Virus record (IMG/VR): IMGVR_UViG_2778261085_000003
Span: 1-5,616 of that record
Length of the DNA: 5,616 nucleotides
Origin: a virus
Taxonomy: Duplodnaviria; Heunggongvirae; Uroviricota; Caudoviricetes
Strand: one strand, 5' to 3'
The notes under the pieces are model-generated. The model did no database searches. It had not been told where the DNA came from and saw only the letters and a list, made by a program, of their open reading frames with translations. Made by a program: the position numbers and the translations under genes. Below, piece by piece: positions 1-4,546 of the stretch; the stretch's first letter is position 1, and each line of letters opens with the position of its first letter.

Positions 1-324
1 GGGATGCTTTAAATCACAGGAATTAATGTTGCACTCAGTAAAATGGTTTTTAAGGGGTTCTATTCGAATCCCTTTCTGTTTCATTAACAAGCCAAATCCC
101 TTATCAATGATATCCATTAATTCCATGAAGTATTTTTCATGTAAATCCTGGTTATCAGAGAGTTGCTTCTCTTCGTACAGCCCGATAAAGGCACGACGCA
201 CGTTACCGGATATAGTATCGATGGTTTCTTTTTCTACGGTACTCAGGTCAAGAGTCGCCAGTTGAGAACGAACTATATTCGCTGCCATTTCCTGGAATGG
301 TTTTGGTAAATCTTTAAATTCCAT
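1..324 (-). CDS. Hypothetical protein, partial (N-terminal 108 codons visible; continues beyond left edge)
   Basis: ATG at 324-322 (minus) preceded by GAGG about 6 nt upstream (plus 331-334 region); frame is open on the minus strand all the way to position 1 (no stop, checked triplet by triplet). Translation begins MEFKDLPKPFQEMAANIVRSQLATLDLSTVEKETIDTISGNVRRAFIGLYEEKQLSDNQDLHEKYFMELMDIIDKGF. Not in the supplied ORF track because it has no stop inside the window. Region is AT-rich (41 G+C in the first 120 nt by hand count). Function not recognised. Confidence 0.5.
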   Translation of the reverse strand, partial: MEFKDLPKPFQEMAANIVRSQLATLDLSTVEKETIDTISGNVRRAFIGLYEEKQLSDNQDLHEKYFMELMDIIDKGFGLLMKQKGIRIEPLKNHFTECNINSCDLKHP

Positions 325-346
325 TATTAGCCTCGTTGGTTAGCTA

Positions 347-565
347 TTAACGTGGGTATGTAATCATTCTGGCAATGCTTAATGCCGCTGCTTTTTCCAG
401 CCTGGTGATATCCTGCTCCAGAGCGGACAGATTTTCAGCCTGCTTAGCCCTGGCTTCATTGGCCCATTTCAAATCCTGCGCTGCATTAATTTTCTGGCGC
501 ATCCACTCATAAAGTTCATCATCGGTATAGTCTGGCGCGATGATGACGGGTTCTCGTTTCTGCAT
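347..565 (-). CDS. ydfC: YdfC-like small prophage protein (72 aa)
   Basis: ORF in track; ATG at 565-563 preceded by GAGGAA about 7 nt upstream; length and position (third small gene downstream of the dicA-like gene, same strand) match the ydfA-ydfB-ydfC arrangement of the Qin prophage as I recall it. Identity is from recalled gene order and length, not from a verified alignment. Confidence 0.7.
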   Translation of the reverse strand: MQKREPVIIAPDYTDDELYEWMRQKINAAQDLKWANEARAKQAENLSALEQDITRLEKAAALSIARMITYPR

Positions 566-594
566 ACTGATTCCTCGCGGTGCTGTTTCGCTTA

Positions 595-723
595 TCAGCC
601 GTTAGATTTTGCCGAACTGGAAAGCGCCTGTTTAAATTCGCTGAAGCTGAGAGCTTCAGCGCCTTCGGCAAGGCTTTCGAAGTATTCTTCGTAAGACTTT
701 TCCATGATTGTGTCGAAATCCAT
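595..723 (-). CDS. ydfB: YdfB-like small prophage protein (42 aa)
   Basis: Not in the ORF track (too short). Minus-strand ATG at 723-721 preceded by AGGTGA; hand translation gives MDFDTIMEKSYEEYFESLAEGAEALSFSEFKQALSSSAKSNG then TGA at 597-595. Acidic, protein-like composition; 42 aa matches the recalled length of YdfB; sits between the ydfA-like and ydfC-like genes. Confidence 0.6.
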   Translation of the reverse strand: MDFDTIMEKSYEEYFESLAEGAEALSFSEFKQALSSSAKSNG

Positions 724-724
724 A

Positions 725-880
725 TCACTCACCTGAGTTTCTTTCCAGCCAGCGACGCGCGCCAGTTTCGGTTTTAAACGTTTTGCTTTTGGTATACGTC
801 ATCGCGGTGAACGTTCCGTCATGGTTGGGAAACACGCCGTATACCAGATATTCGTTGTTACCAAGATCGATAGTATCCAT
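725..880 (-). CDS. ydfA: YdfA-like small prophage protein (51 aa, DUF1391-like)
   Basis: Track ORF 725..934 starts at a GTG; the internal ATG at 880-878 has a better ribosome-binding site (GAGG about 5 nt upstream within AAGGGGAAATGAGGTCAGC) and gives MDTIDLGNNEYLVYGVFPNHDGTFTAMTYTKSKTFKTETGARRWLERNSGE, 51 aa, the recalled length of YdfA. Stop TGA at 727-725 lies 1 nt from the ydfB-like ATG. Confidence 0.65.
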   Translation of the reverse strand: MDTIDLGNNEYLVYGVFPNHDGTFTAMTYTKSKTFKTETGARRWLERNSGE

Positions 881-957
881 GCTGACCTCATTTCCCCTTA
901 ACGCCGGGGCAGCGGAACTGTTTGCTGAGAACACCGTGCGGTGTCTTGATGTAAAGT

Positions 958-986
958 AGATTAGTCATAGCTAACGGCTTGGTCAA
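958..986 (-). promoter_or_regulatory. Candidate sigma70 promoter for the ydfA/ydfB/ydfC-like operon (dicB-operon promoter equivalent)
   Basis: On the minus strand: TTGACC (plus 981-986), 17-nt spacer, TAATCT (plus 958-963). An operator-like palindrome overlaps the spacer and -10; a second lies just upstream of -35. Predicted by eye only. Confidence 0.4.
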
Positions 987-1009
987 GTGTTTTTGTTTGT
1001 CATGGCTAA
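961..1009. promoter_or_regulatory. Pair of operator-like 14-bp palindromic sites (putative DicA-like repressor binding sites)
   Basis: TTAGTCATAGCTAA at 961-974 and TTTGTCATGGCTAA at 996-1009 share the half-site pattern TT(A/T)G(C/T)-N4-(G/A)CTAA with the two sites in the dicA/dicC intergenic region. Confidence 0.45.
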
Positions 1010-1026
1010 CATTTTTGACAGAAAAA

Positions 1027-1054
1027 AAGATAACACATTGATTGTGTTATCTTT
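1027..1054 (-). terminator. Inverted repeat overlapping the dicA-like stop codon; candidate intrinsic terminator for the repressor transcript
   Basis: AAAGATAACACA (1027-1037) / TTGAT loop / TGTGTTATCTTT (1043-1054) is a perfect 12-bp inverted repeat; on the minus strand it is followed by a run of seven T (plus 1021-1027 is a run of A). Stem is AT-rich, so terminator strength is uncertain; it could instead be a protein-binding palindrome. Confidence 0.35.
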
Positions 1055-1454
1055 TGTTTGTTCGTTGACGGGCTTTTAATAATTCTTCAAAGAGTTTGTT
1101 GAAATTTTTTACTCGGGCGCGCATCTCGGTGAGCTGAGCGTCCTGTTCTGATTCAGGCAATGCATTAAAAAGTTCAAGGAGCTCGTGTTCTTTGGGGGAT
1201 AAAGCAACTGGATCCTCAATAGGTGGTGATGGCTGCTTGTCTTCATCGCCAAATAGAATCCATGTTGGCGAGCACTGCAGTACATTGCTAAGTGCAAAAA
1301 GATTCTTCCCTGTTGGTTCGCTATCATCCCGTTCCCATTGTGAAACCGACACATGAGAAATTTTCAGGGCTTTAGCAAGAGACCTTTGGGTGTATTTGAG
1401 GTTTTTTCGGCGATATCTAATGCGTTCGCCAATGGTTAAATTTTTTGTATCCAT
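1047..1454 (-). CDS. dicA: DicA-like repressor (CI-type, XRE-family helix-turn-helix), 135 aa
   Basis: ORF in track; N-terminal helix-turn-helix segment (QRSLAKALKISHVSVSQWERDDSEPTGKNLFALSNVL); length and sequence closely match my recollection of E. coli Qin prophage DicA; divergent from a Cro-like gene across a short operator-bearing intergenic region. Confidence 0.9.
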   Translation of the reverse strand: MDTKNLTIGERIRYRRKNLKYTQRSLAKALKISHVSVSQWERDDSEPTGKNLFALSNVLQCSPTWILFGDEDKQPSPPIEDPVALSPKEHELLELFNALPESEQDAQLTEMRARVKNFNKLFEELLKARQRTNKR

Positions 1455-1536
1455 AGTTAGCCAATGCTAAATCTTATTGACTATGTTTTTGTTAACATCT
1501 ATTTTGTTAGTCATGACTAACAATTGGGTGCTTTAA
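1455..1536. promoter_or_regulatory. Divergent promoter/operator region between the repressor and Cro-like genes
   Basis: Two 14-bp palindromes: TTAGCCAATGCTAA (1457-1470, imperfect) and TTAGTCATGACTAA (1507-1520, perfect). Plus-strand candidate promoter for the Cro-like gene: TTGACT (1477-1482), 17-nt spacer, TATTTT (1500-1505), so the predicted start site falls inside the second palindrome. Minus-strand candidate -10 TAAGAT (plus 1471-1476) with a weak -35 would give the repressor a very short leader. Confidence 0.55.
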
Positions 1537-1767
1537 ATGCTTAAAACAGACGCGCTTTTGTATTTCGGTTCAAAAACAAAACTTGCACAAGCTGCTGGTA
1601 TTCGTTTGGCTTCGCTTTATAGCTGGAAAGGGGATCTAGTTCCTGAAGGTCGCGCGATGCGCCTGCAAGAGGCATCCGGCGGGGAACTTCAGTACGACCC
1701 CAAAGTTTATGACGAATATCGTAAGGCAAAGCGTGCGGGGCGGTTGAACAATGAAAATCACCCCTGA
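1537..1767 (+). CDS. dicC: DicC-like Cro-type regulator, 76 aa
   Basis: ORF in track; first gene divergent from the repressor; helix-turn-helix-like segment (GSKTKLAQAAGIRLASLYSWKG); length and sequence match my recollection of Qin DicC. Confidence 0.85.
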   Translation: MLKTDALLYFGSKTKLAQAAGIRLASLYSWKGDLVPEGRAMRLQEASGGELQYDPKVYDEYRKAKRAGRLNNENHP

Positions 1768-2284
1768 ACAGGTTTGTGAGGCTCTGGATGCCTGGGTATG
1801 CCGACCAGGAATGACACAGGAGCAGGCGACGATATTAATCACGGAAGCATTCTGGGCTCTGAAAGAACGCCCGAACATCGATGTTCAACGCGTCACGTTT
1901 GATGATGGCGCGGTTGATCAACGGGCACTGGGCGTTAACCGGGTGAAGATATTCGAACGCTGGAAAGCTATCGACACCAGGGATAAGCGGGAAAAATTCA
2001 CGGCGCTGATTCCGGCAATTATGGAGGCTATCCGGATCAGTGATTTCAGGTTGTATTGTGAAATTACTGACGGAAAAAGCATTACGTACATGATCTCCGG
2101 GTTAAACAAAGAATATGGCGATGTGGTGGAGTCCGGGCTGCTTTTTGCGGATCCAGCTGTTGTGGAACGTGAGACTGACGAGCTTATAGAAAAAGCTATT
2201 GCTTTCAAGCATGCGTATCGTCAGCAATACCAACATTACTTTGCAGATAAACAAATATCTTCCTGGGGTTCGTATGAGTATTGA
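1751..2284 (+). CDS. YdaT-family protein, 177 aa
   Basis: ORF in track; starts 17 nt before the DicC-like stop; the N-terminal MKI... and the segment REKFTALIPAIMEAIRISDFRLYCEITD resemble Rac prophage YdaT (REK..LIPAI..R..C motif) as I recall it; the position after the Cro-like gene is typical of this family. Confidence 0.7.
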   Translation: MKITPEQVCEALDAWVCRPGMTQEQATILITEAFWALKERPNIDVQRVTFDDGAVDQRALGVNRVKIFERWKAIDTRDKREKFTALIPAIMEAIRISDFRLYCEITDGKSITYMISGLNKEYGDVVESGLLFADPAVVERETDELIEKAIAFKHAYRQQYQHYFADKQISSWGSYEY

Positions 2285-3314
2285 TGCACTGCAATGGGCT
2301 AAAAAGGTGAAAACCGGCAGTTCATCAAGTAAGTCAGTATTGACCTGGCTTGCTGATATGTGCGGTGCCGATTTGTGTGCATACCCGTCAGTATCTGCAC
2401 TGGCTGAAGTAACTGAACTGAACAAAAAGACTGTTCAGGACAGCTTACGACACCTGATGGAGATTGGGTTAATTGTTGATACCGGTGAGAGAAAAGGCCG
2501 AACAAAGCAAATCGTGGTGTACCGACTTATCGGTGTAGAAGAAAGTGTTGCCGAGCCTGAATACACCCAAAAACGGGAGTCTTTAAAGGTGGGTAAAATT
2601 GGTGCTGTTAATAAAAACAGTACCGAAAACGGTTATGTTTCAGCACAAAACAGACCCAAAAACGGAACTCTTTTCTGCATGGAAAATAACCAAAGACACC
2701 CAAATTTTCCATCAAAGACACCCAAAAACGGATCACGGAACCCAAAGGAACCAAAAGATCTAAACCCCACACATAACGCACGTGAGAGTGCTCCGACCAG
2801 TGAGCTGGAGGTTTTGTCGTTACAGGCAACGCCCCCTGAATTCCTGGATGGCTTGAGCGAACCTATCGGAAAATTTCCGATGACCAATGGTTGGCATCCG
2901 TCGCCTGATTTTCGACGGCGGGCTGCACTGTGGGGAGTTGCTCTGCTGGAGCCGGAATTTACACCTGCTGAACTTGTCGCATTCCGGGATTACTGGAGTG
3001 ATGAGGGAAAAGTGTTCACGCAGGTTCAGTGGGAGCAGAAATTCGCCCGCCACGTAAATCACGTCAGGGCGCAGGTTAAACCAGTCAGCAAGGGAGTAAA
3101 CCATGCAGCAGCACCAGGTGGCACCGAATCACGGGCAGTTCAGGAAATTCGGGCAGCACGTGAGAAGTGGGAACGTGAAAACAGATTTATCAGCGACGGA
3201 AACGGCCTGGAAGCTGTGGGAACTCATGGGGGAGATTTATTCGAATCGCTGGACCCAGAAGAACGGTGCCGCGCCTACGAAGCTCTGGATTGCACAGATT
3301 GGCGCGATGACTGA
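2274..3314 (+). CDS. Phage replication initiation protein: N-terminal helix-turn-helix DNA-binding domain plus DnaT C-terminal-like domain
   Basis: Track ORF begins at 2199; I prefer the in-frame ATG at 2274, which overlaps the upstream stop (ATGAGTATTGA, stop at 2282-2284). N-terminus (SVLTWLADMCGADLCAYPSVSALAEVTELNKKTVQDSLRHLMEIGLI) looks like a winged helix-turn-helix of phage initiators. The C-terminal segment GKFPMTNGWHPSPDFRRRAALWGVALLEPEFTPAELVAFRDYWSDEGKVFTQVQWEQKFARHV resembles the C-terminal region of E. coli DnaT (..RLAALWGVAL..YW..EGKVF..VQW..) from memory. The 3' end is uncertain because of overlap with the next gene. Confidence 0.8.
   Translation: MSIDALQWAKKVKTGSSSSKSVLTWLADMCGADLCAYPSVSALAEVTELNKKTVQDSLRHLMEIGLIVDTGERKGRTKQIVVYRLIGVEESVAEPEYTQKRESLKVGKIGAVNKNSTENGYVSAQNRPKNGTLFCMENNQRHPNFPSKTPKNGSRNPKEPKDLNPTHNARESAPTSELEVLSLQATPPEFLDGLSEPIGKFPMTNGWHPSPDFRRRAALWGVALLEPEFTPAELVAFRDYWSDEGKVFTQVQWEQKFARHVNHVRAQVKPVSKGVNHAAAPGGTESRAVQEIRAAREKWERENRFISDGNGLEAVGTHGGDLFESLDPEERCRAYEALDCTDWRDD
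2563..2757. repeat. Iteron-like direct repeats inside the initiator gene (candidate replication origin)
   Basis: Exact ACCCAAAAACGG at 2565-2576, 2654-2665 and 2720-2731; variant ACCGAAAACGG at 2622-2632; CAAAGACACCCAAA at 2691-2704 and 2712-2725; GGAACC(C)AAAG doublet at 2737-2757; all in the same orientation, next to an A+T-rich stretch (about 2585-2620). Confidence 0.5.
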
Positions 3315-3768
3315 GCAGCAAATCCGGCAGGTCTGCCGCCAGTGCATGGACCGCTGCCGGGCGGGTGAAACATGGCCTCCTGACCTTGCTGAGTTTGTGG
3401 CGCTGATTTCAGAAAGCGGAGCCAATCCATTCGGTCTGACAGTGGATGCCGTGATGGAGGAGTACCGTCGCTGGCGCAATGAGTCTTGGCGATACGACGG
3501 AAGCGATAAATATCCGTGGTCTCAGCCTGTGCTGTATCACATTTGCCTCGAGATGCGTTCAAAGGGGATTGAGAGCCAGATGACCGAAGGGGAGTTAAAA
3601 CGACTTGCAGAACGGCAGCTGACGAAATGGGCAAAGCATGTTGGTAATGGACTGAGCGTTCCGCCAGTCCGGCGACAACTGGCGGCCCCCAAACGCCCGT
3701 CGGGACCAACGCCAATTGAGTTGCTGAAACAGGAGTATGAACGCCGGAAAGCAGCTGGGTTTGTTTGA
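3103..3768 (+). CDS. Lambda P-like replication protein (helicase loader), 221 aa if started at 3103
   Basis: ORF in track; the ATG at 3103 has a strong ribosome-binding site (AAGGGAG about 6 nt upstream). Recalled lambda P aligns over the body (PDLAEFVAL vs PGQFVAW; YPWSQPVLYHICLEM vs YPWKSNAHYWLVTNL; MTEGELKRLAERQL vs LTDAELRRKAADEL) and weakly from about residue 60 (KLWIAQIGAMTEQQ vs RQWVLAFRENGITTMEQ). Alternative starts are ATG 3226 and ATG 3307 (ATGACTGA overlap with the upstream stop). Confidence 0.7.
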   Translation: MQQHQVAPNHGQFRKFGQHVRSGNVKTDLSATETAWKLWELMGEIYSNRWTQKNGAAPTKLWIAQIGAMTEQQIRQVCRQCMDRCRAGETWPPDLAEFVALISESGANPFGLTVDAVMEEYRRWRNESWRYDGSDKYPWSQPVLYHICLEMRSKGIESQMTEGELKRLAERQLTKWAKHVGNGLSVPPVRRQLAAPKRPSGPTPIELLKQEYERRKAAGFV

Positions 3769-3801
3769 GTTGATAAGTAAGTTTACCGGGAGGAAATTTT
3801 A

Positions 3802-4530
3802 ATGGAGACCGTTTTTGACGCACTGAAAGCAATGGGAAAAGCCTCTTCCCAGGGAGTGGCTGCACGTCTTGGAATGACCAGGGATGAGGCGATTAACGAG
3901 CTGTGGAAACTGAAGCGTCGCGGGGAAGCTGATAACAATGGTCCGATGTGGTGGCTGATTCAGTCCGGAGAAAGCGAATCACATTCACAGGTACCGAAAG
4001 TGACAGCGCAAATGCTGATTGGTGCGATAGAGCAACATGGTCCTAAAACGGCGGATGAGCTGGCATTGATGTTCAGAATCACTTCCCGTCGGGCGAATTC
4101 ATCACTGGTAATGGCAATCAGCAAAGGACGCCTGATTCGCGTAAATCAGAACGGTAAATTTCGTTATTGTATACCTGATGAAAAAATTAACGATATGAGT
4201 GCGGAAAGCACCATGCTGGTGCAAGTAGGTTCGGACACCGACAAAAACGAAAAGCAGAGTGATCGCAATCGTTTTTTGCCAGCCAAAGAGCATGGTCAGA
4301 GAGAAGATACTGTGGCAGACATTGTGCAGCCGCTGCCATCGTTCACCGAAAAGCGAATGAATTACCAGGTTTTACCATCGCTGCATATGGCAAACCGCGA
4401 ACTGCGCCGGGCGAAAAGTCATGTCCAGAAGTGGGAGCGTGTCTGCGCCGTGCTGCGGGAGCTGAACAGGCACCGGGATATTGTCCGACAGATTGTCGAT
4501 TCCTCCAGTCGTATTGTGTCGGAAAAGTGA
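3802..4530 (+). CDS. Hypothetical prophage protein, 242 aa, with two winged-helix-like segments and a basic helical C-terminus
   Basis: ORF in track; strong ribosome-binding site (GGGAGG about 9 nt upstream); protein-like composition. Possibly a DUF1627-type prophage protein, but that assignment is from memory and not verified. Confidence 0.8.
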   Translation: METVFDALKAMGKASSQGVAARLGMTRDEAINELWKLKRRGEADNNGPMWWLIQSGESESHSQVPKVTAQMLIGAIEQHGPKTADELALMFRITSRRANSSLVMAISKGRLIRVNQNGKFRYCIPDEKINDMSAESTMLVQVGSDTDKNEKQSDRNRFLPAKEHGQREDTVADIVQPLPSFTEKRMNYQVLPSLHMANRELRRAKSHVQKWERVCAVLRELNRHRDIVRQIVDSSSRIVSEK

Positions 4531-4546
4531 TTCCTAGGGAGGGCTT

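Follow-up and report, generated by a model that had tools for sequence, protein, structure and literature searches.

Two adjacent phage replication genes that share 212 nucleotides (nt) in different reading frames raise the question of whether both proteins are really made from the shared DNA or whether one of them has been given the wrong end. The case considered here comes from IMG/VR virus record IMGVR_UViG_2778261085_000003, positions 1 to 5,616, referred to below as the window, which spans the immunity and replication genes of a lambdoid prophage. In this region, the frame of a replication initiator runs from an ATG at 2274 to a TGA at 3312-3314 without an intervening stop, and the gene of a lambda-P-like helicase loader, which lies in the +1 frame relative to the initiator, has an ATG at 3103-3105 behind a strong ribosome-binding site (AAGGGAG at 3090-3096, 6 bases upstream). 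A first-pass annotation had described these elements accurately, together with two later in-frame ATGs at 3226 (Met42) and 3307 (Met69, within ATGACTGA), and had left three explanations side by side: two proteins encoded in different frames over about 70 codons, a loader that starts late at 3226 or 3307, or a frameshift that has extended the initiator. It had also noted that O and P overlap by only 4 nt in phage lambda, as is indeed the case (O 38686-39585, P 39582-40283). The evidence presented here supports the first explanation, speaks against a late start and refutes a frameshift in this copy. The overlap is probably a genuine, evolutionarily maintained one, formed by an initiator of 346 amino acids (aa) and a loader of 221 aa, with 3103 as the most likely position, predicted from the sequence and from structure models, at which ribosomes start on the loader.

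Thirty-seven loci were fetched from GTDB genomes, one per species. A long overlap of 149-227 nt, with a frame offset of 1, was found in 34 loci representing ~20 Enterobacterales genera. Among the non-redundant loci with an intact WPPDLAEF motif in the loader (29), the initiator open reading frame (ORF) ends 8-32 codons before this motif (mostly 15-20), the offset is always 1, and the loader frame can be followed without a stop to an ATG located 80-91 codons upstream, giving overlaps of 149-224 nt; five more distant loci, from Erwinia, Rahnella, Dryocola, Yersinia and Limnobaculum, have overlaps of 161-227 nt. This pattern is broken by L036 and L040, which are obviously frameshifted copies, and by the two Erwinia loader genes L029 and L038, which no initiator precedes. 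Across the divergent relatives that follow the pattern, both frames are open and the start signal and the stop are conserved; on this comparison, the overlap is a conserved feature of the loader subfamily.

The start signals at the three ATGs are of very different quality. An in-frame TAA at 3097-3099 precedes the first ATG, so that the loader frame opens at 3100 and 3103 is the earliest possible start of the loader ORF. A GGAGG, GGGAG or GAGG sequence lies 5-9 nt before the first ATG in every one of the 29 non-redundant loci, and the mean pairing energy with the anti-Shine-Dalgarno (anti-SD) sequence is -9.7 kcal/mol at this position, compared with -5.4 kcal/mol at Met42 and -2.0 kcal/mol at the Met69 position (background -2.4 kcal/mol, first percentile -9.3). 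The initiator residues that lie over the loader ATG differ between loci (H-A, N-A, Y-V, D-A, H-E), yet their codons invariably read xAT-Gxx; it is therefore the ATG that is conserved, not the initiator amino acids. The first ATG is also conserved in the five more distant loci. A fold of positions 3050-3150 gave no RNA structure that would sequester the ribosome-binding site of the loader (z = 0.24).

How selection acts on the shared nucleotides was estimated from 15 alignable related loci, using simple counting methods (Nei-Gojobori) for the ratio of non-synonymous to synonymous differences (pN/pS) and the variability of each codon phase. In the zone that encodes only the initiator (2830-3089), pN/pS is 0.38 in the initiator frame and 1.30 in the loader frame. 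Over the 5′ part of the overlap (3106-3204), the values are 0.60 and 0.83; over the 3′ part (3205-3311), they become 1.97 and 0.15, close to the 2.25 and 0.19 of the zone that encodes only the loader. The phase-specific variability follows the same course. The mean pairwise nucleotide difference at initiator codon positions 1/2/3 is 0.29/0.28/0.54 in the initiator-only zone and 0.22/0.18/0.47-0.49 at 3116-3169, changing to 0.39/0.12/0.10 at 3208-3311 and 0.49-0.52/0.13-0.19/0.10-0.11 in the loader-only zone downstream, so that in the last two intervals the third position of the loader codons is the most variable site. Selection thus switches frame at ~3190-3205, and the codon-phase pattern over the loader leader (3103-3180) is that of the initiator frame. 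The same nucleotides were not found to be under purifying selection in both frames at once: the constraint over the 212 nt is partitioned, not doubled, and the only hint of a double constraint is the lower variability of loader third positions in the overlap (0.39 vs 0.49-0.52).

The predicted structures of the two proteins divide at nearly the same place. AlphaFold2, run for the loader on a 26-sequence alignment, assigns a predicted local distance difference test (pLDDT) score below 50 to the loader leader and predicts helices at residues 29-46, 48-54 and 60-67 (pLDDT 74-85), followed by a helix at 71-86. In the initiator, the DnaT-like domain is modelled confidently, the linker that carries the loader Shine-Dalgarno (SD) sequence and ATG (aa 271-280) has low confidence, and the C-terminal helix precedes an acidic tail. 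The disordered leader of the loader stops at nt 3180, together with the initiator helix, and the first loader helix starts at 3187, where the initiator becomes disordered. The loader residues A36, W37, L39, W40 and E41, all located 5′ of Met42, are conserved, also in the two Erwinia loader genes that lack a preceding initiator, and W50, K53, N54, G55, P58 and W62 are invariant in the homologue alignment. A start at Met42 would cut the first helix, and a start at Met69 would remove three helices. The initiator helix motif is likewise common to every initiator type that is paired with this loader, being kept across differing initiator bodies.

Based on these data, we propose that the initiator would be translated from 2274 to its TGA as a protein of 346 aa, while translation of the loader would begin separately at ATG 3103, directed by an SD sequence of its own, which is written in the flexible linker of the initiator, 3′ of the DnaT-like domain. 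Up to ~3190, the DNA is selected for the initiator frame with its short conserved helix, and the loader would read from it a disordered leader that tolerates change; from ~3190-3205 onward, it is selected for the loader frame with its helical domain, and the initiator would read a disordered acidic tail. The floppy end of each protein would then be the other frame of the structured part of its partner. The sequence of the acidic tail is set by the loader frame.

The loader can be assigned from its profile matches to the PF06992 helicase-loader family (60.9 bits, cutoff 26, aa 55-188), and it is homologous to the DnaB-binding C-terminal part of lambda P. It also matches phrog_109 (P-like helicase loader; expectation value E = 8.6e-63, aa 19-220), and no NCBIfam model matched it. 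A search of the loader profile against solved structures retrieved 8v9t chain V (lambda P residues 84-202, E = 4.3e-6) and 8v9s (E = 7.9e-6), with an alignment to the lambda P structures that begins at about profile position 69, and BLASTP against lambda P gave E = 4e-7 over residues 86-193. The earlier suggestion of a similarity to lambda P already 5′ of 3307 is therefore only marginally true: the PF06992 alignment does start at residue 55 (nt 3265), but the direct BLASTP and hhalign comparisons with lambda P start at residues 83-86. For this reason, lambda P was of no use in placing the N-terminus of the loader. Homologues of 215-223 aa span 99-100% of the 221-aa loader at identities down to 50%. 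The two Erwinia genes L038 (2974-3543) and L029 (2926-3552) are lone P-like loader genes beside host genes, with a neighbouring ORF resembling a phosphotransferase system (PTS) transporter in L038 and ttcA in L029; in both, a short leader of 9-25 aa leads up to the conserved P[AV]WxLWDxM, and they may be domesticated, DopE-like loaders.

Whether an open frame of this length could arise by chance was examined by resampling synonymous codons in each locus. With the initiator amino acids fixed, the loader frame of the window remains free of stops through the first 35 codons in ~70% of simulations. With the loader protein given, the initiator frame reaches its observed stop in ~22% of simulations; the simulated stop falls on average ~22 codons past the switch vs 34-39 observed, and the frame is ~12 codons longer in nearly all loci. 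Neither figure is significant for a single locus, and the lineages are not independent. The maintenance of open frames across many genera is suggestive of more than chance. The window alone does not beat chance; the evidence for a real overlap is comparative. A complete avoidance of T at the sites where it would create an initiator stop (0/112) was considered and discarded as circular, the initiator stop being by definition the first stop in its frame; weight can be given only to the variation among the non-T bases at these sites (crudely, p ~0.03) and to the simulated distribution of stop positions. The strongest arguments are the conserved SD sequence and ATG, together with the loader-frame selection and the structure that lie 5′ of the later ATGs.

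Several observations weigh against a dual-coding overlap of the full 212 nt. The first ~35 residues of the loader are without clear purifying selection at the amino-acid level, and, given the initiator protein, the leader frame is open in ~60% of simulations per locus. The initiator tail past residue ~306 evolves like an unconstrained off-frame, so that its importance rests on weak evidence of stop avoidance, and the pN/pS and phase figures come from no more than the 15 related loci and simple counting. The annotators of RefSeq and DDBJ picked later loader starts. Met42 hardly varies and follows a moderate SD-like sequence, which makes some internal initiation possible, and a literature search found no ribosome-profiling or proteomic data on the overlap.

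The most serious competitor is a loader of 180 aa that starts at Met42, which would reduce the overlap to 89 nt and turn the ORF back to 3103 into an untranslated by-product of codon choice in the initiator. Nearly all homologues have this methionine, the Prokaryotic Genome Annotation Pipeline (PGAP) annotates forms of 177-181 aa in Salmonella, Citrobacter, Klebsiella and others, and a TGGGAG precedes the codon; the first 35 residues are poorly conserved, and the open frame over them is not individually significant. However, this SD-like sequence lies just 3-4 nt before the ATG, where the W-E codons force it, and a much stronger SD sequence with an ATG is found at the first position in every locus. 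Met42 is a CTG codon in locus L023 and a leucine in L025, it lies in the middle of the confidently predicted helix 29-46, and loader-frame selection already begins ~20-35 nt upstream of it, where W37 and W40 keep their TGG codons while the overlying initiator residues vary. We regard a start at Met42 as unlikely, though not negligible; Met42 is predicted to be an internal helix residue and may serve as a minor internal start. A loader of 153 aa that starts at Met69 is what RefSeq annotates by PGAP in EDL933 and ~1000 contigs; it would be made by termination-reinitiation at ATGACTGA, with an 8-nt overlap reminiscent of lambda O-P. The ATGAnTGA arrangement is kept within the Escherichia-Klebsiella-Salmonella group, and detectable homology to the lambda P structures begins near this residue. 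Outside the Escherichia-Klebsiella group, the Met69 ATG is not conserved, being replaced by TTG, CTG, TTC, TGC, TGT or CTC in Citrobacter sp. ANG330, Serratia, Rouxiella, Pectobacterium and Samsonia, so that the loader homologues do not uniformly begin at this position and the conserved start-stop overlap of a lambda-type junction is missing in distant relatives, with SD pairing at background. Moreover, the 33 codons upstream of Met69 are under loader-frame purifying selection (pN/pS 0.15) that equals in strength that on the remainder of the gene, and form the three predicted helices with their six invariant residues, which makes this start very improbable.

Two further explanations invoke a change of frame. 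Programmed +1 frameshifting near 3180-3205 could make the loader domain wholly or partly as an initiator-loader fusion, as selection switches frame at one point and database ORFs fuse the frames at the same point; in addition, phrog_15931, a profile of 482 positions, matches both window proteins over overlapping profile ranges. No slippery or +1 shift-prone motif was seen by eye in 3180-3210, where no motif scan was made, and the RNA fold around the loader ribosome-binding site, which excluded the proposed shift region, was not significant. The independent, conserved SD sequence and ATG make frameshifting unnecessary, and a fusion of this kind is hardly credible. The ORFs P0118 (298 aa) and P0105 (385 aa), which join the initiator to the loader frame at the selection switch (…TEWERQSGGSPPPQEWALWELM…), and phrog_15931 were considered as natural fusions or products of frameshifting and rejected: the fused ORFs are pseudogene-like, having additional frameshifts near the loader C-terminus that are typical of decaying prophages. 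Such frameshifted copies, which also include L036 and L040, do make it conceivable that the overlap is a lesion of this one copy, whether by frameshift, loss of a stop or prophage decay. This reading can be given practically no weight. Compared with the copies in E. coli, E. albertii and Rac-SA53, there is no indel across 3080-3320, and the sole difference in length from the Salmonella and Klebsiella copies is a 3-nt indel. No homologous initiator was found to end near 3105 at a stop that is missing here; the long initiator occurs in every lineage, the termini are the same in 34 loci of ~20 genera, and both ORFs are intact and under purifying selection. The dual-coding overlap, with the loader beginning at 3103, is accordingly the reading adopted in what follows.

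The end of the initiator is shared by proteins that otherwise have little in common. At least five unrelated initiator bodies are found upstream of this loader type, including Phage_rep_O (L019), HTH_36 with a lambda-O-like C-domain (L020, L039), DUF1376 (L023) and several DnaT types with differing N-termini, and all of them end in the same helix and tail, the similarity beginning at or just after the loader SD sequence and ATG. Residues 285-346 of the window initiator align with residues 315-369 of the L020 initiator (E = 4e-7), the middles of the two proteins being unrelated. The converse arrangement is seen in E. coli contig ABLKBM010000027 (L041, 2501-4079), where a DnaT-type initiator is followed by a lambda-type P with an overlap of just 29 nt; this initiator matches that of the window up to '...HVNHIRGKSKNVGKSD' and then has the tail NTDWIEGV, compared with NTDWIYGVDL in lambda O. 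A homologue search with the initiator C-terminus returned mostly partial E. coli entries and was useful just for the alternative-tail initiators P0157 and P0163. Since the tail is shared by unrelated bodies and is exchanged in L041, it travels with the loader and not with the initiator body. The tail type would thus track the loader type, as the sequences suggest, and tail and loader appear to form one recombination unit.

In lambda, genetic studies established that the C-terminus of O contacts the N-terminal region of P. By analogy, the helix and tail of the present initiator may be a docking end specific to the loader. Tentatively, we suggest that the 5′ end of the loader gene could encode in its -1 frame a portable adaptor, consisting of the conserved helix and the acidic tail, that becomes the C-terminus of the initiator and has its boundary exactly at the loader SD sequence, and that recombination at this boundary would re-tail initiators; this is possible, though we hold it to be somewhat doubtful. 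If true, the initiator-loader interface would be inseparable by recombination, and the partners would stay matched in mosaic phage genomes, which is a testable idea of how interacting ends are kept together in them. A tail bound to the loader gene may also explain why one loader can function with five or more unrelated initiator bodies.

In function, the two genes form an initiator-loader pair of the lambda O/P type. The locus resembles lambda O-P in its gene order (repressor, cro, cII-like gene, initiator, loader) and in the homology of the loader core to lambda P, and the co-variation of the initiator C-terminus with the N-terminal type of the loader is in line with the O-P contact. Departures from lambda are the long overlap (212 nt in place of a 4-nt ATGA), the DnaT-like domain that stands in place of the O C-domain, and residues 1-85 of the loader, over which no similarity to lambda P was detected. 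An initiator tail written across the start of P has a partial precedent in lambda O′, described as a minor stop read-through product of unknown function (Yates et al. 1977, cited in PMC3640518). The lambda O frame is open for 35 codons past its UGA, into the 5′ part of P, so that in both cases an initiator polypeptide continues in its own frame over the 5′ part of the loader gene. Unlike in lambda, there is no stop to read through here, and every initiator molecule would carry the 70-codon extension, of which the first part, the helix, is under selection. A second relative, of which the present pair is the phage counterpart, is DopC/DopE, a domesticated lambda O/P-like pair of Cellvibrionales and Oceanospirillales (PMC5509034), in which a protein with HTH_36 and a DnaT C-terminal motif is likewise followed by a PF06992 P-like protein. 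In contrast to the present pair, DopCE is chromosomal and DopC has no iterons (PMC5509034); the word overlap does not occur in the paper that describes it (PMC5509034).

Same-strand overlaps of more than 60 nt are rare in prokaryotes, where they are apparently selected against, and they are often dismissed as annotation errors (PMC3887535). As in overprinted and other long same-strand overlapping genes (PMC8227390, PMC6195259, PMC3887535), one DNA stretch here would encode two proteins in different frames. Unlike in overprinting, neither protein is new: the overlap is confined to the flexible ends of two old, adjacent and interacting genes, with the constraint on either half acting in a single frame. 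Literature searches, which included the RefSeq accessions, found no published description of the initiator-loader overlap. The finding is a variant of known themes, namely phage gene overlap, O-P coupling and modular initiators. The overlap has been kept across ~20 genera, and its length would be tolerated by laying disordered ends over the structured element of the partner.

A practical consequence concerns annotation. Database lengths for this one loader subfamily are 140, 153, 177-181 and 221-223 aa. In EDL933 (E. coli O157:H7), whose copy is 94% identical, RefSeq gives the initiator the same extent as found here (2274-3314) and the loader, from ATGACTGA, as a 153-aa 'replication protein P'; the DDBJ record starts the loader later still, and the PGAP/RefSeq forms in other genera have 177-181 aa. 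The RefSeq starts strip a conserved 40-residue helical N-terminal domain from a widespread loader subfamily, and the annotated 153-aa protein, if expressed, would probably lack the part presumed to bind the initiator.

The initiator is of the kind known as a phage replisome organizer with a DnaT-like domain: the DnaT family PF17948 matches it above threshold (64.1 bits, cutoff 25), the N-terminal match to HTH_36, a helix-turn-helix (HTH) family, stays under its cutoff (20.7 bits, cutoff 25), and PHROG replication-initiation families match residues 1-298 (E = 1e-85). Its gene contains iteron-like direct repeats: a 25-nt repeat with the core ACCCAAAAACGG is present in three copies (at 2560, 2649 and 2715) and a 14-nt repeat, CAAAGACACCCAAA, in two copies within the same interval. 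Like the iterons inside lambda O, these repeats lie within the initiator gene and are probably the replication origin, a putative assignment by analogy. In the L020 initiator (2085-3230, Citrobacter sp. ANG330), a 23-residue segment, GSAPDSLPPSAPGATGVVHQIHQ, occurs in three tandem copies, presumably the protein shadow of DNA iterons.

Features of the window, with positions counted from its first letter (HTH, helix-turn-helix; ssDNA, single-stranded DNA; CDS, coding sequence)
Feature	Position	Strand	Remarks
cI-like repressor	1047-1454	-	
cro-like gene	1537-1767	+	
YdaT/cII-like gene	1751-2284	+	
Replication initiator CDS, 346 aa	2274-3314	+	Putative N-terminal HTH, central linker with iteron-like repeats, DnaT-like domain, C-terminal helix and tail
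Iteron-like direct repeats within initiator gene	2560-2739	+	Between putative HTH and DnaT-like domains; putative origin
DnaT-like ssDNA-binding domain, initiator aa 201-267	2874-3074	+	Pfam; NCBIfam DnaT partial match; AlphaFold2 pLDDT ~90
Shine-Dalgarno AAGGGAG of loader	3090-3096	+	Within initiator codons 273-275
Lambda-P-like helicase loader CDS, proposed 221 aa	3103-3768	+	PF06992, phrog_109, homologue coverage
Dual-coding overlap (probable), 212 nt	3103-3314	+	Loader frame is +1 relative to initiator frame
Loader N-terminal leader, aa 1-26	3103-3180	+	AlphaFold2 pLDDT <50; poorly conserved, length variable
Initiator C-terminal helix, aa 287-302, RAVQEIRAAREKWERE	3132-3179	+	AlphaFold2 pLDDT 63-71
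Initiator acidic C-terminal tail, aa 303-346	3180-3311	+	AlphaFold2 pLDDT <50; predicted disordered
Loader N-terminal helical domain, aa 29-67, AWxLWExMGEIYSNRWxxKNG...	3187-3303	+	AlphaFold2 and selection
Met42 in-frame ATG	3226-3228	+	Inside helix 29-46; moderate SD
ATGACTGA, loader Met69 (RefSeq start) over initiator TGA	3307-3314	+	
DUF1627 gene	3802-4530		3′ of loader
DUF977 gene	4547-4969		After DUF1627 gene

The nearest relatives of the window are prophages of E. coli O157:H7, O145 and O103, the 'PPompW' phages and Rac-SA53, at 90-95% nucleotide identity. The loader subfamily was matched in 1257 of 5426 complete E. coli genomes, with other occurrences in many Enterobacterales; the top match to the initiator-loader region among these complete genomes is only 94.6% identical, although a 97%-identical loader protein is on record; the window would come from an unsampled variant or a neighbouring species. 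Short same-strand overlaps are also present upstream, where the cro-like and YdaT/cII-like genes share 17 nt (1751-1767) and the YdaT-like gene and the initiator share 11 nt (2274-2284). Downstream of the loader, the N-terminus of the DUF1627 protein weakly matches a Ren-like exclusion PHROG (E = 5e-4).

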